NCBI GenBank assembly: GCA_033344915.1
Contig: JAWPML010000001.1
Location: 408,369-472,368 of the forward strand
DNA from: Acidimicrobiales bacterium
GTDB taxonomy: Bacteria; Actinomycetota; Acidimicrobiia; Acidimicrobiales; Aldehydirespiratoraceae
Length of the DNA stretch: 64,000 bases
Direction: 5' to 3'
Under the pieces are notes generated by a model, which ran no database searches, was not told where the DNA came from, and worked only from the letters and a program-made list of their open reading frames with translations. Shown in pieces: positions 5,037 through 39,643 of the stretch. The translations under genes were made by a program, and so were the position numbers. Position 1 is the first letter of the stretch. Each line of letters opens with the position of its first letter.

Positions 5037-5599
5037 CGGATCACGTGGTCCTCGAGGCGCCCCGACCCGACGACGACCCGACACGGCCGCTCGTGTACTT
5101 CCTGTGCACGGGGAACGCCGCCCGCTCCGTGATGGGGTCCGCCATGCTGCGACTCCGCCTCGGGGCGGAGCCGCCGGTGTCCGTGGCGAGTGGCGGCACC
5201 CATGTGCTGCCGGGGCAGGTCATGAGCGTGCGCACCCGCACGGCGCTGGAGCGACATGGCATCCGCGACCCCCACCATCGCAGTCACCAGATCACCAGGT
5301 CCGACATCGAGCGGGCGACCGTCATCCTCTCGATGGAGCCCGACCATCTCCGGTGGATCCGCCGCATGCACCCCGAGGCGGCGCCGACGACCGGCAGCCT
5401 GAAACGGATCGTCCGTGATCTGGGTGGGCCGGCGGACGGCCCGCTCGAGGCACGCGTTGCCGCTTTGGGCCTGGCGACCGTCGAGTTCGAACCCTGGGAG
5501 GAAGTCGTCGATCCGGGCGGGGGTGAGCAGCCGGACTTCGACGTGGCCGCCGACGAGATCGCCGACCTCGTCGACCGACTCCACCGACTCCTGGTCTGA
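5033..5599 (+). CDS. low-molecular-weight protein-tyrosine phosphatase / ArsC-like
   Basis: CX5R(S) P-loop CTGNAARS near the N-terminus. Translationally coupled (ATGA) to the upstream gene. Confidence 0.8.
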   Translation: MTDHVVLEAPRPDDDPTRPLVYFLCTGNAARSVMGSAMLRLRLGAEPPVSVASGGTHVLPGQVMSVRTRTALERHGIRDPHHRSHQITRSDIERATVILSMEPDHLRWIRRMHPEAAPTTGSLKRIVRDLGGPADGPLEARVAALGLATVEFEPWEEVVDPGGGEQPDFDVAADEIADLVDRLHRLLV

Positions 5600-7984: not shown

Positions 7985-8042
7985 ACCGCCACCCTACGGA
8001 ATACCGTGCCGATGTCGGTGTTGAGGAAGGTGGCTGCCACAC

Positions 8043-8342
8043 TTGGAGGCGTCCACCCCCGTTCGGATCCGGAGTGCTGCGTTGCGCGAGCAGGTCGAGA
8101 AGGTCATCACCGCCATCCGTCCGGCCATTCAGGCGGACGAGGGCGACATCGAGTTGATCGAGGTCGACGAGGCCTCCGGCGTCGTGACCGTCGAACTCAA
8201 GGGCGCGTGCGTCACCTGCCCGGCCTCGACCCAGACACTGAAAGCCGGCATCGAGCGGATCATGAAGGACCGCGTGGACGGCGTCACCGAGGTCGTCGAG
8301 ATCAACGCCCTCGGAATGAGCGAGAGCGCGGTCTCGCTCTAG
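8043..8342 (+). CDS. NifU C-terminal-domain (Nfu-like) Fe-S cluster protein
   Basis: Motif GDIELIEVDE..GVVTVELKGACVTCPASTQTLKAGIE (CxxC). TTG start as given by the track. Confidence 0.8.
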   Translation: MEASTPVRIRSAALREQVEKVITAIRPAIQADEGDIELIEVDEASGVVTVELKGACVTCPASTQTLKAGIERIMKDRVDGVTEVVEINALGMSESAVSL

Positions 8343-11003: not shown

Positions 11004-11843
11004 GTGAGCGATTCGTCCCCCGACACTGACGTCACCAGTTGCTATCGGCACAAGAACACGCCGGCGGGAGTGATCTGCCAGCGTTGTGACCGGCCGATCT
11101 GCACCCAGTGCATGCATCAGGCCTCGGTCGGGTTCCACTGCCCGGAATGCGTGAAGGGTGGCAAGCAGCAGATTCTGCGGGGTGCGCCCACGTTCGACCC
11201 GATCGTGACGAAGATCCTGATCGGGCTGAACGTCGTGATCTTCGTCCTGGCCCAGGGCCGGGCCGGCGCCGACCTCGATTTCGGGCTCATCGGCCGGGGG
11301 TTCGTGTCCGGCGAGGGCTTCATCGGGGTGGCCGAGGGCGAGTACTACCGCCTCGTGACCTCGGGTTTCATGCACGCCGGTCTGATGCACCTCGCCTTCA
11401 ACATGTACGCCCTGTGGATCCTCGGCCCCCAACTCGAACGGGTCTTCGATCGGCCCCGCTTCATCGCGCTCTACATGGTGTCGCTCTTCGGCGGGGCGGC
11501 CGGCGTGATGCTGCTCGACCCCAACGCGATCACGGTCGGCGCGTCCGGCGCGATCTTCGGCCTGTTCGGTGCCATCGCGGTGATCCAGCGATCGATAGGG
11601 ATGAACATCTGGGCGAGCGGCCTCGGCCCGATCCTGGCGCTCAACCTCTTCATCACCTTCGCCATTCCCCGCATCTCGGTGGGTGGTCATCTGGGCGGCC
11701 TGGTGGCGGGCGGTCTCGTGGGGCTGCTCTACATCGCCGCCATCCGCGCCCGCCAGAGCCCGTGGGTCGCGCTGGGTGCGGCCACGGTTTTCGGCCTCGC
11801 GCTCGCCGCGGTGTCGATCCAGCTCGCGCTGAACCCGATCTGA
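11004..11843 (+). CDS. rhomboid family intramembrane serine protease with N-terminal zinc ribbon
   Basis: CYRH...CQRCDRPIC..C...FHCPECV zinc ribbon, then HAGLMHLAFNMYALW and GASGAIFGLFGA rhomboid motifs. GTG start at 11004 is chosen, and alternatives lie upstream. Confidence 0.85.
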   Translation: MSDSSPDTDVTSCYRHKNTPAGVICQRCDRPICTQCMHQASVGFHCPECVKGGKQQILRGAPTFDPIVTKILIGLNVVIFVLAQGRAGADLDFGLIGRGFVSGEGFIGVAEGEYYRLVTSGFMHAGLMHLAFNMYALWILGPQLERVFDRPRFIALYMVSLFGGAAGVMLLDPNAITVGASGAIFGLFGAIAVIQRSIGMNIWASGLGPILALNLFITFAIPRISVGGHLGGLVAGGLVGLLYIAAIRARQSPWVALGAATVFGLALAAVSIQLALNPI

Positions 11844-25727: not shown

Positions 25728-27166
25728 GCGCGCTCGACATCGCGGCCGCAGTGCGGGCCGGCGAGCGCCGCGCGGTCGATGTCCTCGACGAACACCTCGC
25801 CCGCATCGAAGCCGGCGACGGCGCCATCCACGCGTTCAACCTCGTGACCCCGGATGCGGCCCGCACGGAGGCCGAAGCGGTCGACGCGGCCGTCGCCCGG
25901 GGCGACGACCCGGGCCCGCTCGCCGGGGTGCCCGTCGCTCTGAAGGACAACATGTGCACGCGGGGCATCCCCACCACGTGTTCGTCGAAGATCCTGGAAG
26001 GCTGGCAGCCGCCCTACGACGCCACGGTCGTGACTCGACTCCGGGCGGCCGGCGCGGTCGCCGTCGGCAAGACGAACCTCGACGAGTTCGCGATGGGCTC
26101 GTCCACCGAGAACTCCGCCTTCGGCCCCACGCACAACCCGCGGGATCTCACCCGCGTGCCCGGCGGGTCGAGCGGGGGCACGGCGGCATCGGTCGCCGCC
26201 GACTTCACGCCCCTCGGGATCGGGAGCGACACGGGTGGATCGATCCGCCAGCCCGCCGCGTTCTGCGGTGTCGTCGGCATGAAGCCGACCTATGGCGCCG
26301 TCAGCCGCTACGGACTGATCGCCTTCGCCTCGTCGCTCGACCAGATCGGCCCGTTCGCGAACTCGGTGGCCGACGCCGCCGCGATGTTCGACGTGATCGC
26401 CGGGCCCGACCCGCTCGATTCCACGTCCATCCGGGACTACTCGCCGGGCGCGTCGAACGCGCTCGAGCGGGGCGTCGACGGCCTGCGGGTCGGCATCATC
26501 CGCGAGCTGTCCGGCGGGGCCGGCACCGTCGACGGCCTGTCGCCCGATGTGCTCGCCCGGACCCGGGAAGCGGTCGAGGCCCTCGCCGCGGCCGGCGCCA
26601 CGGTCGAGGAGATCTCGGTGCCCTCCGCCACGCTCGGTCTCAGCGCCTACTACCTGGTCGCGCCGGCCGAAGCGTCCAGCAACCTCGCCCGCTACGACGG
26701 TGTGCGCTACGGCCTGCGGGTCGACGCGCCGACGACCGGGGAGATGAACACCGCCAGCCGCACCGCCGGGTTCGGACCCGAGGTGAAGCGGCGCATCATG
26801 CTCGGCACCTACGCCCTGTCGGCGGGCTACTACGACGCGTTCTACGGCAAGGCGCTGAAGGTGCGCACGATGATGCTGCGCGAGTTCGCCGAGGCCTACG
26901 AGAAGGTCGACGTGCTCGTCACGCCGACGGCGCCGACCACGGCGTTCCCGCTGGGGGAGCGGACGGCGGATCCGATGATGATGTACGTCAACGACGTCTG
27001 CACCATCCCCTCGAACCTCACCGGCCACCCCGGGATCTCGGTGCCGTACGGCGTCGGCGACGATGGTCTGCCGGTCGGCGTGCAGGTGCTCGCCCCGGCG
27101 CTCGGCGACGAACTGACGTTCCAGGTCGCCGCGGTGCTCGAAGCCGCCGCGGGAGGTGCGTCGTGA
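25724..27166 (+). CDS. gatA: Asp/Glu-tRNA amidotransferase subunit A
   Basis: Amidase signature GGSSGGTAASVA..GSDTGGSIRQPA. 4-nt overlaps on both sides. Confidence 0.95.
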   Translation: MSALDIAAAVRAGERRAVDVLDEHLARIEAGDGAIHAFNLVTPDAARTEAEAVDAAVARGDDPGPLAGVPVALKDNMCTRGIPTTCSSKILEGWQPPYDATVVTRLRAAGAVAVGKTNLDEFAMGSSTENSAFGPTHNPRDLTRVPGGSSGGTAASVAADFTPLGIGSDTGGSIRQPAAFCGVVGMKPTYGAVSRYGLIAFASSLDQIGPFANSVADAAAMFDVIAGPDPLDSTSIRDYSPGASNALERGVDGLRVGIIRELSGGAGTVDGLSPDVLARTREAVEALAAAGATVEEISVPSATLGLSAYYLVAPAEASSNLARYDGVRYGLRVDAPTTGEMNTASRTAGFGPEVKRRIMLGTYALSAGYYDAFYGKALKVRTMMLREFAEAYEKVDVLVTPTAPTTAFPLGERTADPMMMYVNDVCTIPSNLTGHPGISVPYGVGDDGLPVGVQVLAPALGDELTFQVAAVLEAAAGGAS

Positions 27167-28635
27167 CCGATTTCTTCGCCGATGCCGCCACGGACGACAC
27201 GCCGATCGAACCGGCGCTGCCCGATGGATGGGAGCTGGTCGTCGGCCTCGAGGTGCACGTCGAGCTCGACACGGCCACCAAGCTGTTCTGCGGGTGTGCG
27301 AACCGCTTCGGGTCCGAGCCCAACACGAACGTCTGCCCGACCTGTCTCGGTCTGCCCGGCTCGCTGCCGGTCATGAACGAGCATGCCGTCGAGCTGGCGA
27401 TGCGTCTCGGCCGTGCCCTCGGGTGCGACGTGAACCGTTCTGTCATGGCCAGGAAGAACTACTTCTACCCGGACATGCCGAAGGACTTCCAGACAACCCA
27501 GTACGACCAGCCGACCAACACGGACGGCCGCGTCGTGCTCGGTGACGGCTTCGTCGTCGGCATCGAGCGGGCTCACATCGAAGAGGACACCGGCAAGTCC
27601 ACTCATGTCGGCGGTGGCGGTCGGATCAACGACGCCGAGTACTCGCTCGTGGACTACAACCGGGCCGGCGTCCCCCTCGTCGAGATCGTGAGCCGCCCGG
27701 ATGTGCGGACGATCGAGCACGCCAAGGCCTATGTCGAGGAGTTGCGGGGAATCCTGCTCGCCACCGGCGTGTCCGACGCGCGGATGGAGGAAGGGTCGAT
27801 GCGGGTCGACGCGAACGTGTCGGTGCGGCCCCACGGGTCCGCCGAACTGCGCACCCGCTGCGAGATCAAGAACATCAACTCGGTGCGTTCGCTCGGCCGC
27901 GCCATCGAATACGAGGCGCGCCGCCACATCGATCTGTGGACGAACGACGGCGCCCCCGATCAGGAGACCCGGCACTGGGACGAGGAGGGCGGACGCACCA
28001 CGTCCGGTCGTTCGAAGGAGGACGCGGACGACTACCGCTACTTCCAGGAGCCCGATCTCGTTCCCCTCGAGCCGAGTGCCGAGACCATCGCCGCCATCGA
28101 CGCGGCGATGCCACCGCTTCCGGCGGCTCGACGGGCCGCGCTCGTCGAGGCGTCGGGGGTCGACGCCAGCGCGGTCGGGATCGTGGTCGAACGCGGGCAG
28201 GACGGGTTGGCCCTGGCGGCCATCGAGGCAGGTGCGGACCCGGAGAAGGTCGTCACCCGACTCGTGAACGATCTCGCCGTCGAGGACTGGTCGAAGGTCG
28301 AGGGTGAGGCGTTCGCCGAGCTGATCCGCATGGAGTCCGCCGGCGAGCTGAGCGCCACGCAGGCCAAGCAGATCCTCGGCGACCTCGTCGAACAGGGCGG
28401 AAGTCCGGCCGATCACGCGGCCGCCCGTGGCTTCGAGGCGATGGACACCGGCGAGCTCGAGTCCCTCGTCGACCAGCTCATCGCCGACCATCCCGACGAA
28501 TGGGCCCGTTTCACCGGCGCCGACGACGGCGACCGCAAGAAGATGCAGGGCTTCTTCACCGGCCAGATCATGAAGGCCACGAAGGGTCAGGCCGACGGCA
28601 AGGCCGTCGCCCAACTCCTCGCCCAGAAGTCCTAA
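27163..28635 (+). CDS. gatB: Asp/Glu-tRNA amidotransferase subunit B
   Basis: GLEVHVELDTATKLFCGC...N..VCP.CLGLPGSLPV and a GatB/YqeY C-terminus. GTG overlaps the gatA stop. Confidence 0.95.
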   Translation: MTDFFADAATDDTPIEPALPDGWELVVGLEVHVELDTATKLFCGCANRFGSEPNTNVCPTCLGLPGSLPVMNEHAVELAMRLGRALGCDVNRSVMARKNYFYPDMPKDFQTTQYDQPTNTDGRVVLGDGFVVGIERAHIEEDTGKSTHVGGGGRINDAEYSLVDYNRAGVPLVEIVSRPDVRTIEHAKAYVEELRGILLATGVSDARMEEGSMRVDANVSVRPHGSAELRTRCEIKNINSVRSLGRAIEYEARRHIDLWTNDGAPDQETRHWDEEGGRTTSGRSKEDADDYRYFQEPDLVPLEPSAETIAAIDAAMPPLPAARRAALVEASGVDASAVGIVVERGQDGLALAAIEAGADPEKVVTRLVNDLAVEDWSKVEGEAFAELIRMESAGELSATQAKQILGDLVEQGGSPADHAAARGFEAMDTGELESLVDQLIADHPDEWARFTGADDGDRKKMQGFFTGQIMKATKGQADGKAVAQLLAQKS

Positions 28636-28642
28636 AACCGGG

Positions 28643-28745
28643 AATCTCTGGTCACGAAAGGGTCGTTCCCAGGGGCCCTGGGCCGGCGATTTCGACCCTT
28701 TCGTGACCAGAGATTGCTCGGGGGTCAGAGATTCCTCGGGGGTCA
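28643..28745. repeat. palindromic intergenic element: perfect 23-bp inverted repeat (28643-28665 / 28693-28715) with palindromic loop, then tandem AGAGATT(G/C)CTCGGGGGTC x2
   Basis: aatctctggtcacgaaagggtcg and its exact reverse complement. It fills the convergent gatB/MATE intergenic region. The same unit recurs at 35347-35510. Confidence 0.9.
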
Positions 28746-30077
28746 GTGGCGGGTTGCGCCGGTGATCTGCCAGGCGGGGGTGCGGAAACGGAGGACGAGG
28801 GTGATCGCGCGGACGGTGATCCAGGCGTGGAGGCAGACCCAGAGCCAGCCGATGCCGGCGTCGACGGCAAGGACGAGGAGGGCGCCGCCGATCAGGACGA
28901 CGGCCGCCGTCCACATCGCCCAGGCGAGGTAGCGGAGGTCACCGGCGCCGATGAGGACGCCGTCGAGCGCGAACACGACACCGGCGACCGGCTGGGCGAG
29001 CGCGACATGGATGAGCAGGAACGTCGTGAGCCCGAGCACGGCTGGGTCCTCGGTGAACACGTGGGGGAGCACGGGCGACGTCACCAGGACCAGGGCACCG
29101 AGCGCGGCACCGCAGGTGAGCCCCCACTGCGTCATGCGCCGCCCGAGGGCGCGGGCCCGTCGCGGGTCGCCGGCACCGAGTTCGCGGCCGATCATCGCCT
29201 GCGCGGCGATCGCCACAGCGTCGAGCGTCAGCGCCATGAGGTTCCAGATCTCGAACGCGATCTGGTGCGCCGCTAGGTCGTCGTCACCGATACGGGCGGC
29301 GACGGCGAGGGTGATGGTGAGCGACCCGCGCAGCGCCGCCGTGCGCAGGAACAGGTCGACGCCGTCTCCCGCGACCTCACGGATGACGGCCGCGTCCGGG
29401 CGCAGGCCGACGCCCTGTCGTGCGACGGCCTGACGGATCCACCAGACGAACACCCCGGCCGCCACCCACTGGGCGACGACGGTCGAGAGCGCGGAGGCGC
29501 CGATTCCCTGGTCGAACCCGTAGATCAGCACGAGTTCGAGCACGAGGTTGAGCAGGGCGGTCGCGAGCGCGACGTAGAACGGGCGGGCGGTGTCCTGGAG
29601 CCCGCGTAGGTACCCCACGCCGGCGAGGCCGATGAGCATCGCGGGCACGCCGAACAGGCTGATCCGGAGATAGACCTCCGCGTTCGCGGCGACCTCCCCC
29701 GTGCCGCCCATCGCCGAGATCAGCGACGGCCCGGCGGCCAGTCCGGCGAGGAGGAGGCCGACACCTACGAGGCCGGCGAGCCACAGCGACTGCACGGCCT
29801 GATGGGCGGCTCGGCGGTGCTCGCCGGCGCCGAGCAGGCGGGCGACCGCCGAGGTCGTCCCGTACGCGAGGAAGATGAAGACGGCGTGGCCGATCAGCAG
29901 CAGCGACGACGCGAGGGCGAGCCCGCCGAGTTGGGCGGTGCCGAGCCGACCGACGACCGCCGTGTCCGCGAGGATGTAGAGCGGTTCGGCGACCAGGGCT
30001 CCCAGAGCGGGGAAGGCGAGACGTAGAATCTCGCGGTCGTCGGGGGTCCACCACGCTCGACGACTCGGGGAGGCCAT
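28743..30077 (-). CDS. MATE family efflux transporter
   Basis: 12-TM-like protein. N-terminal ILRLAFPALGALVAEPLYILADTAVVGRLG is typical of MATE/DinF proteins. Confidence 0.85.
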   Translation of the reverse strand: MASPSRRAWWTPDDREILRLAFPALGALVAEPLYILADTAVVGRLGTAQLGGLALASSLLLIGHAVFIFLAYGTTSAVARLLGAGEHRRAAHQAVQSLWLAGLVGVGLLLAGLAAGPSLISAMGGTGEVAANAEVYLRISLFGVPAMLIGLAGVGYLRGLQDTARPFYVALATALLNLVLELVLIYGFDQGIGASALSTVVAQWVAAGVFVWWIRQAVARQGVGLRPDAAVIREVAGDGVDLFLRTAALRGSLTITLAVAARIGDDDLAAHQIAFEIWNLMALTLDAVAIAAQAMIGRELGAGDPRRARALGRRMTQWGLTCGAALGALVLVTSPVLPHVFTEDPAVLGLTTFLLIHVALAQPVAGVVFALDGVLIGAGDLRYLAWAMWTAAVVLIGGALLVLAVDAGIGWLWVCLHAWITVRAITLVLRFRTPAWQITGATRH

Positions 30078-30172
30078 GGGGTCGCAGGGTATTGCCGTCT
30101 GGTTCGTAGCGGCGCCCGGGCCACTAGCGTCCCCACGACCCGGACCATGTTCGCCGCCGAGAGTGCCCTGCC

Positions 30173-32284
30173 GTGACCGACTCGCCCACCCAGACCGCGC
30201 CTGACGCGGCCGCGGCGCGCAAGCGGTTCAAGTACATCCCCGCGCTCGACGGCATGCGGGGGTTCTGGGTCGTCTTCGGGCCGCTGCTCTACCACGCCCG
30301 TCCCGAGAGCGTGCAGGGCGGTCCGGACATCCTGCCCGGCGGCATCCTCGGCGTGGACATGTTCTTCGTCCTCTCGAGCTACCTGATCACCGGGATCGCG
30401 CTCAACGAGATCGAGTCGACGGACCGGATCGACCTCGTCGCCTACGCGGGGCGACGGGTCCGGCGACTCTTCCCGGCGCTGTTCACGCTCATCGCCTTCC
30501 TCGCCCTGTACCTGGCGCTGAGCGATCCCGATCTCGTTCCCCGTTGGACGGGTGCGATGGTGTCGGCGCTGCTCTACGTCGCCAACTGGTACGAGATCGG
30601 CAGTGGCGTCGACTACTTCGAGCAGTGGACCAACCCGTCGCCGCTGAAGCACGTCTGGTCGTTCTCGATCGAGGAACAGTTCTATCTCTTCGCGCCCCTG
30701 TTCATCATCGCCCTGCACCGCTGGTTCCCCAGCCGGTTCCGGCAGGCCCTGCTGATCACCTCGGTAGCGGGCGCCCTGCTCTCGGCCTGGTGGATGTCAC
30801 GGGTCCACACCGACGTCGACTCGATCAGTCGGGCGTACTACGGCACCGACACCCGGGCCCAGGCGTTCTTCGTGGGCATCGCGATGGCCGTCATGGTGCG
30901 CATGTGGGGACCCGTCCGCAGCGCGCTCAACAGCAGGCTCGTCGCCGTCCTCGCCTACCCCGCGACGATCTGGTTCTTCTGGGCGGTCACGAACGTGTCG
31001 GAGCGCGATGCGTGGATGTTCGACCAGGGCGGATTCCTGCTCGCCGCGGTGATGTCGGCGATCATCCTCCACGGACTGTCGCAGGACGCGCCGTGGAGCC
31101 CGCTGCACCGGATCTTCGAGTCGCGGCCGTTCATCTACGTCGGCCGGATCAGCTACGGGCTGTACCTGTACCACTGGCCGGTGTACCTGCTCGTCACCCG
31201 CGAGCGGGCGAGCCGGTGGACGGGCATCGAGGATCCGAGCGGCTACGTCCTGCTCGCGATCCATCTGGTGATCACCTTCATGGTGGCCATCGCGTCGTTC
31301 CACCTGATCGAGCAGCCGTTCACGAAACGGCGGTTCCCCTGGACCGGCGTCTCGCTCGACATGCGCAATGGCGCGCTGGCCGGCGCGATCGCCATCATCG
31401 CCATCCTCGGCGGACTGCTCTGGGCGAACAGCGACCGTCCGAACGACATCGAGCAGGTGATCATCGAGGTGCCGGTCGAAGCCGACGACGAGGTCGACTT
31501 CGGACGCGACGACATCGCGGGCGCGGACGTCGGCGAAGGGATCGACAACGACGCCGCGCTGAACGCGGACGACACCGACGCGCCCCGGATCCTCGTCGTG
31601 GGCGATTCGGTGATGGCGCAGATCGGCTGGGCGCTGCACCTCTACGGCGAGGACACGGACGCCGATGTCGTCGTGTTCAACGAGAGCCACCTCGGCTGTG
31701 GCGTCGTGCGCTACGGCGACAAGCGGGTGAACGAGACGGACGAGGGTCCCGTGGGCGACGTCTGTTCGAACTGGAACGTGCCGGTCGCTCCGCACGAGGT
31801 CGCGGCCGCCGAGGTCATCTCCTGGCCGACCGCCATCGAGCTGTTCCGCCCCGATGTCGTGCTCGCCCATGTGTCGTCGTGGGACGTCGCCGACCGCATC
31901 GTGCCGGGCGTGGCGGAGGACTGGGTGTCCATCGGCGACCCGGCCTACGACGCCTACGTGCTCGACGAGTACACGCTCGCCAACGAGGTGCTGACGGCCT
32001 CGGGCGCGGACGTCTACTGGATGATGTCGCCGTACCTGAACCGGGGACTGCTCCCCGAGGACCACCGGGACCGGGTCGACGGGATCAATGCCCTCGTCAC
32101 CGAGTCGATCGAGGCCGTCGTCGCCGAGACCGGGGCGTCCATCACGCAGATCGACTATCCGGGTTGGATCGGCCCCGTCGGCGAGGCGCGCGACGCCGAC
32201 CTGCGCGATGACGGTGTGCACCTCACCCAGGCCGGGCTCGACGAGATCGCGCCGTGGCTCCTCGCGGCGATGGGTCTCACGTGA
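30173..32284 (+). CDS. acyltransferase family 3 (OatA/OafA-like) membrane protein with C-terminal SGNH/GDSL-like domain
   Basis: N-terminal AT3 motifs (LDGMRGFWV, VDMFFVLSSYLI, HVWSFSIEEQFYL). C-terminal ILVVGDSVM...DDGVHLT (SGNH-type Ser and His blocks). Confidence 0.85.
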   Translation: MTDSPTQTAPDAAAARKRFKYIPALDGMRGFWVVFGPLLYHARPESVQGGPDILPGGILGVDMFFVLSSYLITGIALNEIESTDRIDLVAYAGRRVRRLFPALFTLIAFLALYLALSDPDLVPRWTGAMVSALLYVANWYEIGSGVDYFEQWTNPSPLKHVWSFSIEEQFYLFAPLFIIALHRWFPSRFRQALLITSVAGALLSAWWMSRVHTDVDSISRAYYGTDTRAQAFFVGIAMAVMVRMWGPVRSALNSRLVAVLAYPATIWFFWAVTNVSERDAWMFDQGGFLLAAVMSAIILHGLSQDAPWSPLHRIFESRPFIYVGRISYGLYLYHWPVYLLVTRERASRWTGIEDPSGYVLLAIHLVITFMVAIASFHLIEQPFTKRRFPWTGVSLDMRNGALAGAIAIIAILGGLLWANSDRPNDIEQVIIEVPVEADDEVDFGRDDIAGADVGEGIDNDAALNADDTDAPRILVVGDSVMAQIGWALHLYGEDTDADVVVFNESHLGCGVVRYGDKRVNETDEGPVGDVCSNWNVPVAPHEVAAAEVISWPTAIELFRPDVVLAHVSSWDVADRIVPGVAEDWVSIGDPAYDAYVLDEYTLANEVLTASGADVYWMMSPYLNRGLLPEDHRDRVDGINALVTESIEAVVAETGASITQIDYPGWIGPVGEARDADLRDDGVHLTQAGLDEIAPWLLAAMGLT

Positions 32285-34359
32285 CGGCACCCGAGCGGCC
32301 CCGCTTCCGCTACATCCCAACCTTCGACGGGATGCGGGGCTTCTGGGTGATCATGGGGCCGCTGCTGTACCACGCCCGTCCGTCGTCGATCCAGGGCGGC
32401 CCCGACATCGTGCCGGGTGGCATCCTCAGCCTCGACCTCTTCTTCGTGCTGTCGAGCTACCTCATCGTGAGCATCGCGCTGAGGGAGTGGGACGGCACCG
32501 GCGGCATCGATCTGGGGGCCTACGCCGGCCGCCGGGTGCGACGACTGTTCCCCGCACTGTTCCTCGTGCTGGGGTTCCTCAGCATCTATCTCGCGATCGT
32601 GAGCGATCCCGAGATCGTGGATCGCTGGACGGGGGCGATCGTGTCGGCGCTGACCTACAGCGCGAACTGGCACGAGATCGCCGCCGATGTCTCGTACTTC
32701 GAGCAGTTCGGCGCGCCGTCGCCGTTGAAGCACGTCTGGTCGTTCGCGATCGAGGAGCAGTTCTACCTGTTCGCGCCCCTGTTCATCATCGCCGGACTGC
32801 GGTGGGGCGGCCGTCGCGGCCGGGAGATCCTGCTGGCGTTGTCGGTCGCCGGCGCGCTCGCGTCCGCCTGGTGGATGACCCGCGTCCATGTCGAGGGAGA
32901 GGACCCGAGCCGCGCCTACTACGGCACCGACACCCGGGCCCAGGCGCTGTTCGTCGGCATCGCGATGGCGCTGGCGATCAATCTGTACGGGTCGCCCCGC
33001 ACCCGACTCGGCACGCGGCTCGCCGCGCTGCTGGCGTATCCCGCCACCGCGCTGCACCTCTGGGCCGTGCTCACCGTGAGCGAGCGCGACGCGTGGCTCT
33101 TCGAGAACGGCGGGTTCCTGCTGATCGCGGTGGCCGCCGGTGTGGCGATGTTCGGCATGGCCCAGGACGCACCGTGGAGCCCGCTACACCGACTGTTCGC
33201 GTCGCTGCCGTTCCGCTACGCCGGGCGGATCAGCTACGGCCTGTACCTCTATCACTGGCCGATCTACCTGTTGGTGACGCCGGGGCGGGCCGGCGCCCTG
33301 TTCGGCGTGGACAATGTCACCGGCTACCCGCTCCTCGCCTTCCACCTCACGCTCACCGTGCTGGTGTCGGTGGCGTCCTTCCACCTGATCGAGCAGCCCT
33401 TCGTCAAGCGCACGTGGCCGTTCTCGTTCCGGCCGCTCGTGCCGTCGACCGCCTGGTTCGCCGGGGCCGGCGCCGTGGTGGTGATCCTCGGTGGGCTCCT
33501 CCTCGCCTACACGCGGGTGCCGCCGGAGATCGTCGAACGCATCGTGATCGTCGACGAGGCCGCCGCGGAGCCCGTGGACGGGCTGGGCGCGTCGCCCGCC
33601 GAATCCGACATCGGTGCCGAGGTCGACGGCGTGCCCGACGAGGGTGACGGCACGGTGCGCATCCTGACGGTCGGCGACTCGGTCGTCGACCAGATCGGGG
33701 TCGCCCTCGTCGACTGGACGCTCGAGAACCCGGACGCCGGCATCGTGGCGTTCAACGAAGCCCACATCGGTTGCGGAACCATCCGGGAGGGCCTGAAGCG
33801 GGTGCCCGAAGGGCTCGAGGGGCCGGTGGGGGACATCTGCTCGGACTGGGCCGACCCGGTCGATCCCGCTGTGGTGACCGAGTACAACGTCGTCTCGTGG
33901 CCGACGATCCTCGAGGAGTTCCGACCTCACATCGTGATCACCCACGTGTCGCCGTGGGACGTGACGGATCGGCTCGTGCCCGGACTCAACGACGACCAGT
34001 GGACCCACGTCGGCGAGCCGGTCTTCGACGACTACGCGCGATCGGAGTTCACCGAGGCGATCGATCTGCTCACCAGCACCGGTGCGTCGCTCTACATCCT
34101 CGAAGGGGCAGCGCTGAACCGCGAGGTCACGCCGCAGAACGACCCCGCCCGCATCGAGTCGCTCAACGCGCTGGTGGGGGACGTGGCCGATGCCGCCGGA
34201 GATGACGTCCTCATGCTGGACTATCCGTCCTTCATCGGGCCGGTCGGGAGCGATCAGGAACTCTCCCGCCGCGACGACGGGGTGCACCTGAGCGACCGGG
34301 GCATCGACGAGGTCCTGCCGTGGCTCTTCGAGCAGATCGGTGTGGACGCGTCGGGCTGA
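32281..34359 (+). CDS. acyltransferase family 3 with C-terminal SGNH-like domain (tandem paralogue)
   Basis: GTGA overlap with the previous gene. The AT3 half is collinear and highly similar to 30173..32284. C-terminal ILTVGDSVV...DDGVHLS. Confidence 0.85.
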   Translation: MTAPERPRFRYIPTFDGMRGFWVIMGPLLYHARPSSIQGGPDIVPGGILSLDLFFVLSSYLIVSIALREWDGTGGIDLGAYAGRRVRRLFPALFLVLGFLSIYLAIVSDPEIVDRWTGAIVSALTYSANWHEIAADVSYFEQFGAPSPLKHVWSFAIEEQFYLFAPLFIIAGLRWGGRRGREILLALSVAGALASAWWMTRVHVEGEDPSRAYYGTDTRAQALFVGIAMALAINLYGSPRTRLGTRLAALLAYPATALHLWAVLTVSERDAWLFENGGFLLIAVAAGVAMFGMAQDAPWSPLHRLFASLPFRYAGRISYGLYLYHWPIYLLVTPGRAGALFGVDNVTGYPLLAFHLTLTVLVSVASFHLIEQPFVKRTWPFSFRPLVPSTAWFAGAGAVVVILGGLLLAYTRVPPEIVERIVIVDEAAAEPVDGLGASPAESDIGAEVDGVPDEGDGTVRILTVGDSVVDQIGVALVDWTLENPDAGIVAFNEAHIGCGTIREGLKRVPEGLEGPVGDICSDWADPVDPAVVTEYNVVSWPTILEEFRPHIVITHVSPWDVTDRLVPGLNDDQWTHVGEPVFDDYARSEFTEAIDLLTSTGASLYILEGAALNREVTPQNDPARIESLNALVGDVADAAGDDVLMLDYPSFIGPVGSDQELSRRDDGVHLSDRGIDEVLPWLFEQIGVDASG

Positions 34360-34375
34360 CCTACGCTCGACGGCC

Positions 34376-35335
34376 ATGGACGTCGCCGCGGCAGCCCGCT
34401 CGCTGAACGAAGTCGCCTACGGCTACATCGGCTCGTGGTCGTTGCTCACCGCGAGCAACCTCGGACTGTTCGACCGGTTGCCGGCCCGCGTCGACGATCT
34501 GGTCGACGAGTATCCCGATCGCGGGCTCACCGCGACCTGGCTGACCGTGCTCGCGGACAACGACGTCGTGGTCGAGGACGACGGTGTGTGGTCGCTGGCC
34601 CCGGGAATGGACGTCCTGCTCACGGGCGAGGGCTCCTACGCGGAATACCTCGGCGGACAGATCATCGATCAGGTGGCGCCTCGTCTTCTGCTCGGCCGCC
34701 CGGGGATCAACGAACTCGCCACCGTGCTGCGGGACCCGACCGGCCGCGGGGGCTACGAGGCGTGGTTCGCGGACGATGCGGAGGCTCGTGCCTATCAGGC
34801 GTCGCAGTTCGCCGGGTCGGTGCTGCCCGGGCGGGGGATCGCCCGAGCGATTGAACCGACGGGCCCGGTGCTCGACCTGGGTGGCGGCTGGGGCGCGGTG
34901 GCGGCCGCCATCGCGGCGCGTCACGACGTGGCGGTCGACGTCGTCGATCTCGAACCCGTGGTCGCGTCGGCTCCGCCGCAGGACGGTGTGCGGTACCTGC
35001 CCGGCAGCGCCCTCGACGCGTCGACCTGGCCGGACGGCGACTACGACGGCGTCGTGCTCAGCTACCTGCTGTCCTCGGTGCCCGGCGAGTTCCACCAGCC
35101 GCTCTTCGACCAGCTCGCCGCGCGCGGCGTCCGTTGGGTCGCCGTCCACGACTTCCTGCTCGGCGGGGGCGCACTCGCCGCCGCCTGGTCACTGCAGCAT
35201 GCGGTCTTCGTCCCCGACCATGTCAGCCGCACCATCGACGAGGTCGGCGCCATGCTCACGTCCTGCGGCTTCACCGTCGCCGACCGCCGGCCGCTCGTCG
35301 ACGACATGACGACCCTCGTCCTCGCCTCCACCTGA
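34376..35335 (+). CDS. SAM-dependent O-methyltransferase (COMT/methyltransf_2-like)
   Basis: N-terminal winged-helix/dimerisation-like region, then SAM motif VLDLGGGWGAVAAAIAARH. Confidence 0.7.
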   Translation: MDVAAAARSLNEVAYGYIGSWSLLTASNLGLFDRLPARVDDLVDEYPDRGLTATWLTVLADNDVVVEDDGVWSLAPGMDVLLTGEGSYAEYLGGQIIDQVAPRLLLGRPGINELATVLRDPTGRGGYEAWFADDAEARAYQASQFAGSVLPGRGIARAIEPTGPVLDLGGGWGAVAAAIAARHDVAVDVVDLEPVVASAPPQDGVRYLPGSALDASTWPDGDYDGVVLSYLLSSVPGEFHQPLFDQLAARGVRWVAVHDFLLGGGALAAAWSLQHAVFVPDHVSRTIDEVGAMLTSCGFTVADRRPLVDDMTTLVLAST

Positions 35336-35346
35336 CCGGCTCCAGG

Positions 35347-35510
35347 GGAATCTCTGGTCACCAAAGGGTCGAGTTCCGGGCCGAAACCCTGGAATCTCTG
35401 GTCACGAAAGGGTCGTACCTGGCGCCCGTGGTCGCGCCTTTCGTGCACAGAGATTGCTCGTGGGGCCCGATGTCGGGCTGATCGCCGCGCCTTTGGTGCC
35501 CAGAGATTGC
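35347..35510. repeat. two nested copies of the same palindromic element as at 28643 (arms 35347-35371/35487-35510 and 35391-35415/35434-35457)
   Basis: Outer arms carry caccAaagg/cctttGgtg and inner arms carry cacGaaagg/cctttCgtg. Each right arm ends in AGAGATTGCTCG. Confidence 0.9.
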
Positions 35511-35521
35511 TCGGAGGTGGG

Positions 35522-36040
35522 TCACCAGTGGCCGGAGGCGCGGGCGGCGTCGGTCATCCACTCGGTGCGGCCCGCCCGGGCTGCGGACGAGCTGATCGCG
35601 AGGAGGTCGTCGGCCACGGGCAGTCGATGTTCGTCGGGGATCTCGTGGGGCGGACGGGGCGCCAGTGCGAGACGGGGAAGGCGGGCGAGTGCGGCGTCGC
35701 GAGCTGTGTCGTCGTCGCCGTACCACGCGGGGTCGTTGACCTGGGCCCACTTGTCGGCCCCCATCACCACGACGTCGTAGCCGCGGGAGATGTCGGCGAT
35801 CAGTTGCGCCTCGGTGACGACGACGCCGAGTCCGTCGATCTCCTCGATCGACGCCCGAATCACATGGATGCGCTGAGCCAGCGTGGGACGGGCGACATCA
35901 TCCTTGCCGAGGGCGACCGCGCTGATCGCGAGATCGACGCGGCTCAGCCCGTGGGTGTCGCGCGCCGCGAGGGCGATCTCGACGTGGGCCCGGGTCGGCG
36001 GGTTGAACGAGCCGGGATAGACGCCGATCCGGGAGGACAT
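35522..36040 (-). CDS. cytidylyltransferase-like nucleotidyltransferase (NadD/NMNAT-like)
   Basis: GVYPGSFNPPTRAHVEIA (the (H/T)xxH nucleotidyltransferase motif). 172 aa. Confidence 0.65.
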   Translation of the reverse strand: MSSRIGVYPGSFNPPTRAHVEIALAARDTHGLSRVDLAISAVALGKDDVARPTLAQRIHVIRASIEEIDGLGVVVTEAQLIADISRGYDVVVMGADKWAQVNDPAWYGDDDTARDAALARLPRLALAPRPPHEIPDEHRLPVADDLLAISSSAARAGRTEWMTDAARASGHW

Positions 36041-36185: not shown

Positions 36186-36217
36186 CGACCTCCCCAAGGG
36201 AGGTCGTTTCGTTTTTT
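36186..36217 (+). terminator. intrinsic terminator (attenuator) upstream of ilvB
   Basis: cgacctccc-caa-gggaggtcg (9-bp GC-rich stem) followed by tttcgtttttt. It lies 30 nt before the ilvB ATG. Confidence 0.75.
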
Positions 36218-36246: not shown

Positions 36247-38025
36247 ATGAGCACAGCCATGAGCGACAACCAGCAGATCTCGGGCGGCGAGGCCCTCGTC
36301 AAGAGCCTCGAGCACGAAGGCGTCTCCTCCATCTTCGGCTACCCGGGCGGCGCGATCCTTCCCGTCTACGACCCGATCATCGACAGCTCGATCCGTCACA
36401 TCCTCGTGCGCCACGAGCAGGGCGCCGGCCACATGGCCGAGGGCTACGCGCACGCCACCGGAGAGCCGGGCGTCGCCATGGTCACGTCCGGCCCGGGCGC
36501 GACGAACGTCGTCACGCCGCTGGCCGACGCGTTCCTCGACTCGGTCCCGATGGTCTGCATCACCGGCCAGGTGCCGTACGCGGCGATCGGCACCGACGCC
36601 TTCCAGGAGTGCGACACCACCGGCATCACGATGGCGGTCACGAAGCACAACTTCCTCGTGACCGAGGCGCAGGACATCCCTCGCATCATCCACGAGGCGT
36701 TCCACATCGCGACGACCGGGCGCCCGGGGCCCGTGCTCGTCGACATCCCGAAGGACATCGTCGACCCGACGAACCCCCGCTCGGCGATGAACTGGTACAC
36801 GGCCACCGATGCCGACATGGAACTGCCCGGCTACTCCCCCCAGATGGAGGGCGATCGGGAGCTGATCCGCCAGGCCGCCGAACTCATTCGCGATGCCGAG
36901 CGCCCGGTGCTCTATGTCGGTGGCGGCGTTCTCAAGGCCCGCGCCGCGGAAGCTCTCATGGAGCTGGCGGAGATGGTGCAGATCCCGGTCGTCACGACGT
37001 TGATGGCCCGCGGTGCCTTCCCCGACAGCCACGAACTCTGCCTGGGCATGCCCGGCATGCACGGCAACTACACCGCCGTCACCGCGATGCAGCAGAGCGA
37101 TCTGCTGATCTCGCTCGGCGCCCGCTTCGACGACCGCGTCACCGGCAAGCTGGACGGATTCGCGCCCGACGCCAAGATCATCCACGTCGACATCGACGCA
37201 GCCGAGCTCGGCAAGGTCCGTCAGTACAACGTCGGCATCCAGGGCGACTGCCGCGTCGTCATCGAGGGCATCAACCATGCCCTGCGCGATCTCGGCGGCA
37301 CCGAGGCGCAGGCCGACCGCAGCGCCTGGCGGTCGACGGTGTCGGGCTGGCAGGAGAAGTTCCCGCTCACCTACGAGCAGTCGGCCGCGGGCGACAAGCT
37401 CAAGCCCCAGTACGTCATCGAGGAGCTGCGCGACGGCAACCCGGCCGACACGATCGTTGCGTCAGGCGTCGGTCAGCACCAGATGTACGCCAGCCAGTGG
37501 TGGAAGTTCGATCACCCGTACACGTGGGTGAACTCCGGGGGCCTCGGCACCATGGGGTTCTCCATCCCCGCCGCCATCGGGGCCAAGGTCGGCAAGCCCG
37601 ACAGCCGGGTCTGGGCGGTCGATGGTGACGGGTGCTTCCAGATGACCGCGCAGGAGCTCGTCACCGCCTCGGTCGAGAACATCCCGATCAAGGTGGCCCT
37701 GCTCAACAACTCGTATCTCGGCATGGTCCGCCAGTGGCAGGAGATGTTCTACGAGGAGCGCTACAGCGAGGTCTACCTCCAGGAGCGGGTGCCGGACTAC
37801 GTGAAGTGGGCCGAAGCCATGGGCTGCGCCGCGATCCGCGTCGAGGCGCCCGAAGAGGTCGCTCCGGCGATCGCCAAGGCGAACGAGATCAATGACCGTC
37901 CGGTCGTCGTCGAGTTCGTCACCGATGCAGGGGAGAACGTGTTCCCGATGGTGCCGGCCGGCAAGTCGAACAGCGAGGTCGTCGTCGACCCGACCCAGCA
38001 GCACCTGCTCGGCGGGGAGGGCTGA
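36247..38025 (+). CDS. ilvB: acetolactate synthase large subunit
   Basis: ThDP enzyme motifs (GGEALVKSLEHEGV, GYPGGAILP, GLGTMGF..PAAIGAK, DGDGCFQM). Confidence 0.95.
   Translation: MSTAMSDNQQISGGEALVKSLEHEGVSSIFGYPGGAILPVYDPIIDSSIRHILVRHEQGAGHMAEGYAHATGEPGVAMVTSGPGATNVVTPLADAFLDSVPMVCITGQVPYAAIGTDAFQECDTTGITMAVTKHNFLVTEAQDIPRIIHEAFHIATTGRPGPVLVDIPKDIVDPTNPRSAMNWYTATDADMELPGYSPQMEGDRELIRQAAELIRDAERPVLYVGGGVLKARAAEALMELAEMVQIPVVTTLMARGAFPDSHELCLGMPGMHGNYTAVTAMQQSDLLISLGARFDDRVTGKLDGFAPDAKIIHVDIDAAELGKVRQYNVGIQGDCRVVIEGINHALRDLGGTEAQADRSAWRSTVSGWQEKFPLTYEQSAAGDKLKPQYVIEELRDGNPADTIVASGVGQHQMYASQWWKFDHPYTWVNSGGLGTMGFSIPAAIGAKVGKPDSRVWAVDGDGCFQMTAQELVTASVENIPIKVALLNNSYLGMVRQWQEMFYEERYSEVYLQERVPDYVKWAEAMGCAAIRVEAPEEVAPAIAKANEINDRPVVVEFVTDAGENVFPMVPAGKSNSEVVVDPTQQHLLGGEG

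Positions 38026-38530: not shown

Positions 38531-39643
<1,113 letters not shown>

Follow-up and report, generated by a model that had tools for sequence, protein, structure and literature searches.

Palindromic repeats on either side of a four-gene block between gatB and ilvB are very probably members of a dispersed, lineage-specific intergenic family

Between gatB and ilvB of an Acidimicrobiales genome, the same palindromic element stands on either side of four genes, which raises the question of whether the two sites are the borders of an accessory cell-envelope module, as a first-pass annotation of the DNA had claimed, or have another origin. The locus lies in a stretch of 64,000 nucleotides, hereafter the window, and its features are collected in Table 1. 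At the domain level, the four genes bracketed by the two repeat sites are as that annotation described them (MatE, two Acyl_transf_3 and one Methyltransf_2 in Pfam). The gene row consists of gatB in forward and MATE in reverse orientation, a slot, the NadD-like gene in reverse orientation and ilvBNC; the ilvB leader contains a terminator-like hairpin followed by a T-run at 36186-36206.

Table 1 Features of the gatB-ilvB interval (positions in the window)
Feature	Position	Strand	Remarks
gatB	27163-28635	+	Conserved backbone gene
Single repeat copy	28641-28717		Arms 28641-28665 and 28693-28717, 27-nt loop; in the convergent gap between the gatB and MATE stops
18-nt tandem duplication, CAGAGATTGCTCGGGGGT / CAGAGATTCCTCGGGGGT	28708-28743		Extends across the right arm's outer end as far as the MATE stop codon
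MATE family transporter	28743-30077	-	Pfam MatE 4e-50; TIGR00797 305 bits; synteny
AT3a, Acyl_transf_3 membrane acyltransferase with weak SGNH/GDSL-like C-terminal part	30173-32284	+	
AT3b, tandem paralogue of AT3a	32281-34359	+	
DsyB-like SAM-dependent methyltransferase (MT)	34376-35335	+	Alternative start 34340
Nested double repeat copy (++--)	35347-35510		Arms 35347-35371, 35391-35415, 35433-35457 and 35486-35510; spacers 19, 17 and 28 nt; in the convergent gap between the methyltransferase and NadD-like stops
Small cytidylyltransferase-like (NadD/CoaD-like) gene	35522-36040	-	Under every curated cut-off
ilvB	36247-38025	+	Conserved backbone gene

The repeat arm is 25 nt long (GGAATCTCTGGTCACGAAAGGGTCG) and forms one hairpin at the first site and a nested double hairpin at the second. 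With up to three mismatches, GGAATCTCTGGTCACSAAAGGGTCG matches the window four times (28641, 35347 and 35391 on the plus strand and 28693 on the minus strand) and gave matches in none of 100 shuffled windows, confirming that both sites carry the same element. The partner arms at 35433 and 35486 on the minus strand are degenerate, with five mismatches each and with deviations common to both, and the tail CAGAGATTSCTCG occurs four times (28708, 28726, 35448 and 35501) against 0.13 expected. The predicted RNA fold of the first site has an energy of -66.8 kcal/mol on the plus strand (z -5.3) and -59.2 kcal/mol on the minus strand (z -5.6), and that of the second site -106.7 kcal/mol (z -6.2). Sub-threshold Rfam matches of the hairpins to miRNA precursors (37.6 bits, the gathering score being 64) were rejected as generic hairpin look-alikes.

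As an explanation of this arrangement, we considered a composite mobile or accessory element (a genomic islet) whose ends would be the two sites and which would have imported the MATE gene, the acyltransferase pair and the methyltransferase gene as one envelope module. The presence of the same element on either side of the four genes agrees with this, as does the differing gene content of the gatB-ilvB interval among relatives: its length is 2.2-10.9 kb across the order, and in the slot from MATE to the NadD-like gene, the number of acyltransferase genes is zero to two and the methyltransferase is present in three species only. However, a more distant congener (G002; gatB 89% identical) has MATE, AT3a, AT3b, the methyltransferase, the NadD-like gene and ilvB in the identical order, yet no copy of the repeat was found anywhere in its genome. 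This is one of the two outcomes that the annotation itself had named as refuting its module. Wherever a checked genus of the taxonomic family keeps the region, MATE and gatB are convergent, and MATE is retained even in relatives whose slot contains neither an acyltransferase nor the methyltransferase; the NadD-like gene lies directly upstream of ilvB in most genera of the family. MATE and the NadD-like gene are a family-wide backbone, and the variable content is the acyltransferase copy number and the methyltransferase alone; the proposal that the whole block plus the NadD-like gene is variable thus holds for the latter two and fails for the two conserved genes. Because the left repeat copy separates gatB and MATE, two genes conserved across the family, the limits of the variable content are not set by the repeats. 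The composition of the block, which the annotation had suggested comparing with its surroundings, is native (78th percentile for tetranucleotide distance, 57th for GC, and codon usage of every gene inside the range of the genome), and ORF and Pfam scans of 24-42 kb of the window identified no integrase, other recombinase or transposase in or next to the block. Each site is, moreover, a self-contained palindrome and not half of a pair. We therefore regard an imported islet as extremely improbable.

A genome-wide count bears on the same question. Allowing up to six mismatches, the 4.48-Mb genome contains 101 arms in 45 clusters, which correspond to ~38 loci after merging split loci and removing lone chance matches; at most loci, the arms have 0-3 mismatches to the consensus. 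Every real copy is intergenic, with most at the 3' ends of genes, and convergent gaps, which make up 17% of all gaps, hold 16 of 40 clusters, divergent gaps only four. Three pairs of neighbouring repeats lie within 6.8 kb of each other compared to 2.1 expected (P=0.34), and the 6.7 kb between the two window copies is, therefore, no closer than expected by chance. The repeat thus occupies ordinary intergenic sites, and it is this count together with the comparison of relatives that removes the term module here. For annotation, this implies that identical palindromes around a few genes are not to be equated with island borders until they have been counted genome-wide and relatives have been compared.

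Across the genome, the repeat takes the form of single or nested hairpins or of inverted pairs with fixed spacers. Loop lengths are solely 6-7, 17-18 or 27 nt. Because the arm centres are 32, 42 or 52 bp apart, corresponding to about 3, 4 or 5 helical turns, recognition of the arms by a protein is suggested. A single 25-nt arm has no internal inverted repeat and contains only a direct GGTC...GGTC, and direct reading of the arm sequences revealed no conserved GTAG-like 5' motif. Duplications of 14-18 nt at the boundary, like that at 28708-28743, are present at 9 of 74 outer arm ends genome-wide compared to 1.7% of random positions. In 30 loci examined at symmetric offsets of 0-15, there was no excess of 3-8-nt direct repeats as expected of target-site duplications, and no U-tract accompanies the elements. 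Two other classifications were tried and rejected: integron attC sites or gene cassettes (the copies are dispersed, there is no integrase and the core sequence is unrelated) and a CRISPR-like array of 25-nt direct arms with 28-29-nt spacers (pairs are mostly inverted, no site has more than 2-3 direct units, and the copies are scattered).

Among the genomes compared, 88 repeat arms were counted in this genome (G000), 31 in its nearest relative (G007) and none in 29 other relatives, and scans of entire metagenome and viral contig collections yielded 0 matches to the arm. Of the 18 repeat loci in G007, 17 are orthologous to G000 loci. The first window copy is among those with an orthologue, in which the arms are conserved and the 27-nt loop is unrelated; conversely, at least one G007 copy lacks an orthologue, the corresponding G000 site being a plain short hairpin. 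Overall, orthologous copies are 92% identical in the arms, 62% in the loops and 57% in the 25-nt flanks, and the value for the loops equals the baseline of unrelated loops (60 +/- 6%) obtained with a gapped aligner. The hairpin arms covary, with 32 compensatory cells compared to 15.9 +/- 2.9 in 2000 shuffles (maximum 27). We do not claim loop inversion between the two genomes: the ungapped reverse-complement identity reached 0.56-0.63 at three of nine loci, and the gapped aligner returned the level of unrelated loops. In 4 of 14 comparable loci, an indel or rearrangement between G000 and G007 coincides exactly with the element. These breakpoints, at copies other than the two in the window, were the third point in favour of an islet, and because of them the repeat family is not wholly unlinked to variable content. 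Of note, G002 has a different palindrome with a similar core, TCTGGTGCAC, at the junction of the methyltransferase and NadD-like genes; an old palindrome at this junction could have helped when the methyltransferase arrived.

We consider it very probable that the two window sites are gene-less members of a dispersed, lineage-specific, REP-like intergenic family and not module borders. Such a family would have expanded in the common ancestor of G000 and G007, and its copies would have settled mainly behind genes, including the two convergent gaps of the vertically inherited gatB-ilvBNC row. As RNA, the 25-28-bp stems would end or protect convergent transcripts and, as DNA, the arms would be recognised by a protein. 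Like the REP/REPIN elements and BIMEs of Proteobacteria with their RAYT enzymes, the family consists of short, lineage-specific intergenic hairpins in tens to hundreds of copies, mostly behind genes, with inverted doublets and composite clusters, and, as in a REPtron, a gene for an enzyme that acts on DNA lies inside one copy.

This likeness raises the alternative that the repeats are a classical REP/REPIN family moved by a REP-associated tyrosine transposase (RAYT), which is a Y1 HUH enzyme of the IS200/IS605 kind. The traits of REPINs, i.e. two inverted 25-mers with a spacer, intergenic location, a bias to gene 3' ends and lineage specificity (PMC3337134, PMC3116915), are those of the window repeat, and the genome encodes two Y1_Tnp proteins scoring over the Pfam cut-off. 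However, no copy of the repeat is near these genes (C1:2868680-2869552 and ~2049600-2050552), both of which adjoin another palindrome family (GGGGTCNGACCCC, 79 copies), and Y1_Tnp genes are also present in G002, which has no copy of this repeat. In addition, the single arm of our repeat is not a short palindrome and carries no GTAG-type motif, its loops are quantised at 7, 17 and 27 nt, and the enzyme enclosed by one copy has an AbiEi-N wHTH and a DUF559/REase-fold nuclease instead of a Y1 HUH transposase. Mobilisation by a RAYT is, therefore, very improbable.

We view it as comparably unlikely that the repeats are MITEs (miniature inverted-repeat transposable elements), i.e. derivatives, by internal deletion, of an insertion sequence that encodes a DDE transposase and has 25-nt terminal inverted repeats. 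The family shows features characteristic of MITEs (small size, terminal inverted repeats, nested insertions and many dispersed copies), and it resembles Correia, ERIC and RUP elements in being small, non-coding, dispersed and able to nest. Unlike these, it lacks target-site duplications, and no transposase-encoding parent insertion sequence was found: inverted arms are spaced 1-1.3 kb apart at just two loci, where the gene between them encodes a DUF559 nuclease in one case and a lipoprotein in the other. Moreover, random internal deletion does not explain the quantised loops.

Finally, the elements might have been host functional sites from the start (bidirectional terminators, RNA stabilisers or sites bound by a chromosomal protein) that selection maintained and that were never mobile. 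The conservation of the arms between species alongside saturated loops and flanks, arm centres placed whole helical turns apart by the quantised loops, covariation of the arms, the very stable predicted hairpins and the predominance of orthologous copies in G007, which points to little recent movement, all fit such sites. Yet ~38 near-identical copies in one short branch that are absent from all other congeners require a copying process, and the G007 copy whose G000 counterpart is only a plain short hairpin is a further difficulty. The lack of a U-tract argues against terminators, and the identity across copies exceeds what a structural role alone needs. We consider host sites that never moved improbable, although less so than RAYT-mobilised elements or MITEs.

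For the REP-like family favoured here, we then asked which protein might recognise the arms. At G000:C1:4413747-4414844, two arms in direct and two in inverted orientation (++ gene --), the same as those of the 38 loci, enclose a gene for a protein with AbiEi-N and DUF559/REase_MTES_1575 domains, and G007 has the identical arrangement around its nuclease gene. Among the genomes compared, both the repeat and a 92%-identical copy of the nuclease gene occur in G000 and G007 only; because the co-occurrence is confined to these two, it amounts to one phylogenetic event. In 12 genomes, 13 of 22 homologues of the nuclease lie between inverted repeats that are 25 nt or longer, compared to 1 of 1200 random genes. 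A link of the nuclease paralogues to the window repeat itself was rejected, as their flanks are other palindrome families: in G000, the paralogue at C1:697251-698144 is flanked by GTTCTGTGAGTAGAAGTCAGCAC palindromes (about six loci) and that at C1:2295916-2296815 by the GGCTTCTTAACCGAG family (at least 13 copies). A second nested copy of the repeat, at C1:1881788-1883224, encloses an unrelated lipoprotein gene, and in the 93%-complete genome of G002, the TCTGGTGCAC family has no gene-bearing copy.

Based on this arrangement, the nuclease encoded inside one copy is the most likely candidate for recognition of the arms, and we propose a link between the two only tentatively. The wider reading, in which the GGAATCTCTGG palindromes would be dispersed recognition sites of the AbiEi-N/DUF559 nuclease, an Acidimicrobiales case of an undescribed, REP/RAYT-like partnership with an unrelated enzyme, appears rather unlikely. 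Under this reading, a protein dimer would bind both arms on one face of the helix, giving loops of 7, 17 and 27 nt, and would keep the arms alike while the loops drift; as a result of cutting, deletions, insertions and gene capture would concentrate near the sites. If true, the repeats would mark variable loci statistically, even though the block between gatB and ilvB is not their product. The single gene-bearing copy per family, the lipoprotein gene inside the second nested copy and the lack of a gene-bearing copy of the G002 family count against the nuclease link.

Similar layouts exist in other Actinomycetota, in which AbiEi-N/DUF559 genes are framed by their own dispersed palindromes. As there, a gene for a wHTH and DUF559-fold protein lies between inverted hairpin repeats that are also scattered gene-less at gene ends, and paralogues have different cognate repeats; unlike there, the host belongs to the Acidimicrobiales, the flank is a nested two-arm structure and the window copies are gene-less. 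No publication on AbiEi-N/DUF559 genes inside their own palindromes was found in the literature searched. The window repeat family would thus join an apparently unpublished actinomycetotal pattern of a DUF559-fold nuclease gene nested in its own dispersed palindromes, and it adds measurable features (conserved arms with saturated loops, loop steps of one helical turn and boundary duplications) that make a model of protein-DNA recognition directly testable.

The gene combination had also been taken to suggest acylation, methylation and export of a cell-wall glycopolymer. No conserved linkage supports such a module: MATE occurs in relatives without the acyltransferases, and the methyltransferase, which is at this locus in G000, G007 and G002 only, has homologues with unrelated neighbours in other Acidimicrobiia. 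The protein itself is a Methyltransf_2 protein, in agreement at the domain level with the O-methyltransferase that had been named, but it aligns over its full length with DsyB of Nisaea denitrificans (7wdq; E 4e-31; BLASTP identity 33%; residues 17-327 of the 331-aa form starting at 34340 against chain residues 5-331). DsyB/DSYB is the MTHB S-methyltransferase of DMSP synthesis, and the MTHB-binding residues of DsyB are Y97, Q101, Y129, Y142, Q146 and H291 (PMC10989797). They correspond to Y91, Q95, Y127, Y140, Q144 and H275 of the window protein, and all six are invariant when this protein and 10 Acidimicrobiia homologues are aligned with DsyB. Of the six SAM-contacting residues, five are conserved, D223 being replaced by S, D or N. 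The changed D223 and the identity distinguish the protein from DsyB; the working threshold of the field for calling dsyB is at least 40% identity to a ratified enzyme, under which 33% falls, and inactive DsyG-like proteins are known (PMC11306096). The substrate is more likely MTHB (4-methylthio-2-hydroxybutyrate) or a related small acid, which would be S-methylated, than a glycopolymer. Because the enzyme is DsyB-like and its neighbours elsewhere are unrelated, the idea of a glycopolymer module is weak. Genes resembling dsyB were reported in 2026 from the marine lineage from which this methyltransferase comes (PMC13280387), and an Acidimicrobiia-wide DsyB-like family that keeps all substrate-binding residues is relevant to the question of which marine bacteria are able to produce DMSP.

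The acyltransferase paralogues in the slot downstream of gatB and MATE are predicted to be of the OafA/OatA type. AT3a and AT3b score 79 and 69 bits with Pfam Acyl_transf_3 (cut-off 31) and share about 55% amino-acid identity, with nucleotide blocks that are 70-90% identical. As in AT3-SGNH proteins of the OafA/OatA type, an N-terminal Acyl_transf_3 membrane domain is followed by an extracytoplasmic C-terminal part of ~270 aa with weak SGNH/GDSL signals, all of them sub-threshold (PF19040 21.4, PF13472 17.7-21.9 and DUF459 17.1-24.9 bits), and sequence comparison found no match in the PDB. The nearest NCBIfam model is mycobacterial SucT, the score being far under its cut-off (86 compared to 1275 bits). 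AT3a is intact in G000, G007, G002 and one further genome (G008) and is reduced to a C-terminal remnant in two others (G006 and G009). AT3b is at this position in all genus members with an assembled locus as well as in two further genera (g2 and g5).

The first-pass annotation had proposed that two copies of one palindromic element bracket an accessory cell-envelope module (a MATE exporter, two acyltransferases and an O-methyltransferase) between gatB and ilvBNC. The identity of the two copies was borne out: the pattern GGAATCTCTGGTCACSAAAGGGTCG matched four times in the window with ≤3 mismatches, at 28641+ and 28693- in the gatB/MATE gap (site 1) and at 35347+ and 35391+ in the gap between the methyltransferase and NadD-like genes (site 2), compared to no match in 100 shuffles. 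With looser settings, a genome scan also picked up degenerate reverse arms at two positions, 35433 and 35486, and the tail CAGAGATTSCTCG occurred four times vs 0.13 expected. Predicted folds of the two sites, on either strand, reached -66.8, -59.2 and -106.7 kcal/mol (z -5.3 to -6.2). Rfam returned only sub-threshold look-alikes of generic hairpins, and we rejected an Rfam identity.

Beyond the window (G000:C1:408369-472368), the element is dispersed through the closed source genome (G000; 4,481,363 bp, 69.4% G+C), in which 101 arms (≤6 mismatches) form 45 clusters; removal of five lone weak matches and merging of two split loci leaves 38 loci. Based on a simple GC3-based gene call (3927 genes, 90% coding), all real copies are intergenic. 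Convergent gaps hold 16 of 40 clusters while making up 17% of all gaps in the genome; the corresponding values are 19 of 40 and 66% for tandem gaps, and 4 of 40 and 17% for divergent gaps, the last cluster overlapping one called gene, the call of which extends into the element. The family therefore favours the 3' ends of genes, with both copies in the window being typical members. Because three pairs of neighbouring loci lie ≤6.8 kb apart vs 2.1 expected under random placement (P=0.34), the 6.7-kb pair in the window calls for no special cause.

We screened relatives with a 22-nt arm core, allowing ≤2 mismatches. This core yielded 88 arms in G000, 31 in the nearest relative (G007, an 81%-complete MAG with a 96% identical gatB) and none in 29 further genomes sampled across genus, family and order; metagenome and viral collections contained no exact match to the repeat. 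Because 17 of 18 retrieved G007 loci, including the gatB/MATE copy, map to element-bearing loci in G000, the family must have expanded before these two lineages diverged, with fairly little change afterwards. The methyltransferase/NadD-like junction of G007 falls in a gap between contigs C26 and C285. One G007 copy, on contig C267, lacks a G000 counterpart; a plain short hairpin occupies that site in G000. We conclude that the window repeats are real and that they belong, as ordinary members, to a REP-like family specific to this lineage.

As for the genes between the copies, tblastn of the window proteins against the DNA downstream of gatB in 18 relatives revealed a backbone order gatB > MATE < [slot] NadD-like < ilvB ilvN ilvC, in which the slot is a single variable stretch. 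The minimal row gatB-MATE-NadD-like-ilvB occurs in three genomes from outside the genus (G011, G019, G021), and in genera g2 and g5 the slot contains a single acyltransferase. Among members of the genus, G008 has both tandem acyltransferase genes (AT3a and AT3b), G006 and G009 have AT3b and a C-terminal remnant of AT3a, and G005 has AT3b and a distant AT3 gene; both acyltransferases together with the methyltransferase were found only in G000, G007 and a more distant congener, G002. Of note, gene order in G002 (gatB 89% identical) is identical to that of the window, and neither this locus nor the rest of the G002 genome contains a copy of the repeat. The same genes in the same order without the repeat contradict its proposed role as module border. 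Moreover, site 1 lies between two backbone genes, away from the edge of the slot. The block is also compositionally ordinary, with a tetranucleotide distance at the 78th and a GC content at the 57th percentile of same-size windows, and per-gene GC3 and codon usage inside the genome range. The suggestion of variable content between gatB and ilvB holds for one slot and fails for MATE and the NadD-like gene, which are backbone. We conclude that these genes form a row passed on vertically, in which one slot varies, and that the block is not a repeat-bounded module. Two further observations concern this row. In G005, gatB and MATE are separated by a 1.08-kb insertion (contig C4, locus L035, 1483-2564) that is missing in every other relative; it encodes an ORF in which a module containing YGCPDCADGG is duplicated. 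In the ilvB leader, a terminator-like hairpin followed by a T-run (36186-36206), upstream of the preferred ilvB start at 36247, is consistent with attenuation control.

Coordinates of repeats and associated features (positions without contig prefix are window coordinates; + and - denote arm orientation)
Feature	Position	Description
Site 1	28641-28717	Single hairpin, 25-nt arms, 27-nt loop; starts 6 nt past gatB stop
18-nt tandem duplication	28708-28743	Spans outer end of right arm of site 1, reaching into MATE stop codon
Site 2	35347-35510	Nested double hairpin (++--); occupies whole gap from methyltransferase stop to NadD-like gene stop
ilvN-ilvC spacer palindrome (TTCTGTGAGTAGAA...)	38531-38577	Member of second dispersed family, ~6 loci
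Split nested copy	G000:C1:1881788-1883224	++ ... --; 420-aa lipoprotein-like gene inside
Nested copy with nuclease gene	G000:C1:4413747-4414844	304-aa protein inside (encoded at 4413855-4414769); AbiEi-type N-terminal wHTH, DUF559/REase_MTES_1575 signals
Site of hydrolase gene missing from G000	G000:C1:3731921-3731964	Only last codons of the gene left in G000; in L061 (G007:C15) the gene lies directly beside the orthologous repeat
Sister-genus junction repeats	L039 (G010:C37) 7986-8162	
Sister-genus junction repeats	L040 (G020:C1) 5184-5340	

The encoded proteins bear on the proposal that the block O-acylates, O-methylates and exports a glycopolymer. The MATE product is a clear MATE family transporter with no equivalog assignment; its gene also occurs in relatives whose slot lacks an acyltransferase, so MATE and the acyltransferases are not tied together. 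AT3a and AT3b are tandem paralogues scoring above the Pfam cut-off for Acyl_transf_3, with weak SGNH/GDSL signals in the C-terminal ~270 aa; the nearest NCBIfam model, SucT, scored far under its cut-off. The best solved relative of the methyltransferase (34376-35335) is DsyB (E 4e-31, full length, 33% identity), the MTHB S-methyltransferase of DMSP synthesis. When the window protein was aligned with DsyB and ten homologues from Acidimicrobiia, all six MTHB contacts of DsyB (Y97, Q101, Y129, Y142, Q146, H291) and five of its six SAM contacts (S150, G173, D196, D223, A224, S239) proved invariant (contacts from PMC10989797). The DsyB-like family is common in marine Acidimicrobiia (e.g. Ilumatobacter coccineus, 57% identity), one member is annotated in one source as 2-hydroxy-4-(methylsulfanyl)butanoate S-methyltransferase, and dsyB was reported in Acidimicrobiales MAGs in 2026 (PMC13280387). 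DsyG-like inactive proteins exist (PMC11306096), and 33% identity is no proof of function; on this evidence, S-methylation of a small molecule is a more likely function than O-methylation of a glycopolymer. DsyB-like homologues elsewhere have unrelated neighbours, with no acyltransferase or MATE gene beside them. Because of these neighbours, the likeness to DsyB and the occurrence of MATE alone in relatives, an acylation/methylation/export module lacks the support of conserved linkage, leaving the glycopolymer proposal weak and the DsyB-like type of the methyltransferase as a point of interest beyond it.

We also considered whether the repeats accompany local rearrangement. In a small sample centred on elements, 4 of 14 loci comparable on both flanks between G000 and G007 differ by an indel or rearrangement that coincides exactly with the element; no further breaks were found in ~40 kb of compared flanking DNA, which served as control. 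Next to C1:3731857, a ~930-bp alpha/beta-hydrolase gene present in G007 is absent from G000; beside C1:4414844 and beside C1:3777413 the neighbours differ between the two genomes; and the G000 counterpart of the C267 site is without the element, the adjacent gene there having an internal deletion. These breaks keep open that the repeats are hot spots of local change, and they do not rescue the module reading for the gatB-ilvB locus.

The anatomy of the family is of interest beyond the original claim, the palindromes being constrained and helically phased. Hairpin loops measure 6 nt (1), 7 nt (5), 17 nt (8), 18 nt (4) or 27 nt (19) and have no other lengths, same-orientation arms are spaced 27–29 nt in 14 of 16 cases, and arm centres lie 32, 42 or 52 bp apart, i.e. 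near 3, 4 and 5 turns of B-DNA. Orthologous arms of G000 and G007 are 92% identical, and their loops 62% identical vs 60 ± 6% for unrelated loops; identity is 57% in the 25-nt flanks and 82–93% in neighbouring coding DNA. Arms covary within hairpins (32 compensatory cells vs 15.9 ± 2.9, maximum 27, in 2000 shuffles). Flanks are C-rich on the left and G-rich on the right, and weakly complementary at positions 8–10 beyond the arms. Arm sequence and spacing are thus constrained and loops free, from which we infer that a protein would recognise the arms. No target-site duplications were found at repeat loci. A 14–18-nt tandem duplication crosses the arm boundary at 9 of 74 outer arm ends vs 1.7% of random positions, the duplication beside site 1 being one of the nine.

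A possible partner of the repeat is the nuclease gene framed by one of two loci in which ~1 kb of coding DNA parts the nested arms. The other locus, around the lipoprotein-like gene, matches it in arm type, with CACG for the outer and CAGG for the inner arms, and G007 has the same enclosed-nuclease arrangement. G000 has two paralogues of the nuclease (46–47% identical), each inside a different palindrome. One, the DUF559-type paralogue at G000:C1:697251-698144, is framed by two complete copies of the GTTCTGTGAGTAGAAGTCAGCAC palindrome, a family of ~6 loci that includes the ilvN-ilvC spacer of the window (TTCTGTGAGTAGAA...); the other is framed by GGCTTCTTAACCGAG..., with at least 13 copies. 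Inverted repeats of ≥25 nt within 220 nt bracket 13 of 22 homologues from 12 genomes vs 1 of 1200 random G000 genes. The repeat and a 92% identical nuclease gene co-occur in G000 and G007 only, which is a single evolutionary event. G002 has its own palindrome family with core TCTGGTGCAC (18 exact 12-mers vs 1 in the control), and the absence of a gene-bearing copy of this family from its genome counts against a nuclease-repeat partnership. All three nuclease paralogues (4413855, 697251, 2296815) have a GTGTCACAC-type motif 27–30 nt upstream of the start codon; it is independent of the flanking palindrome family and recurs in several homologues of other genomes. Separately, inverted GGCTTCTTAACCGAG copies 1.29 kb apart (G000:C1:2901113 and 2902399) may enclose another gene.

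A classical REP/RAYT reading of the arm repeat is unfit: the two RAYT-like Y1_Tnp (HUH) genes of G000 (C1:2868680-2869552 and about 2049600-2050552) instead adjoin palindromes of a third repeat family, GGGGTCNGACCCC, with 79 copies. Together, these genes and palindromes may represent an Acidimicrobiales example of the classical REP/RAYT pairing. G002, G006 and G009 likewise have a GGGGTCNGACCCC-type palindrome where gatB-ilvB junctions lie. In the separate TCTGGTGCAC family of G002, TCTGGTGCAC(C/G)A cores face each other in inverted orientation at a distance of 33 nt (L032 on contig C10, ~11709-11801, and eight other loci); this core is similar to TCTGGTCACGA in the arm of G000, and one copy sits at the methyltransferase/NadD-like junction, where G000 carries the nested repeat. 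In the sister genus, other genus-specific direct and inverted repeats fill the AT3/NadD-like gap, and it appears that each lineage has separate repeats at this junction.
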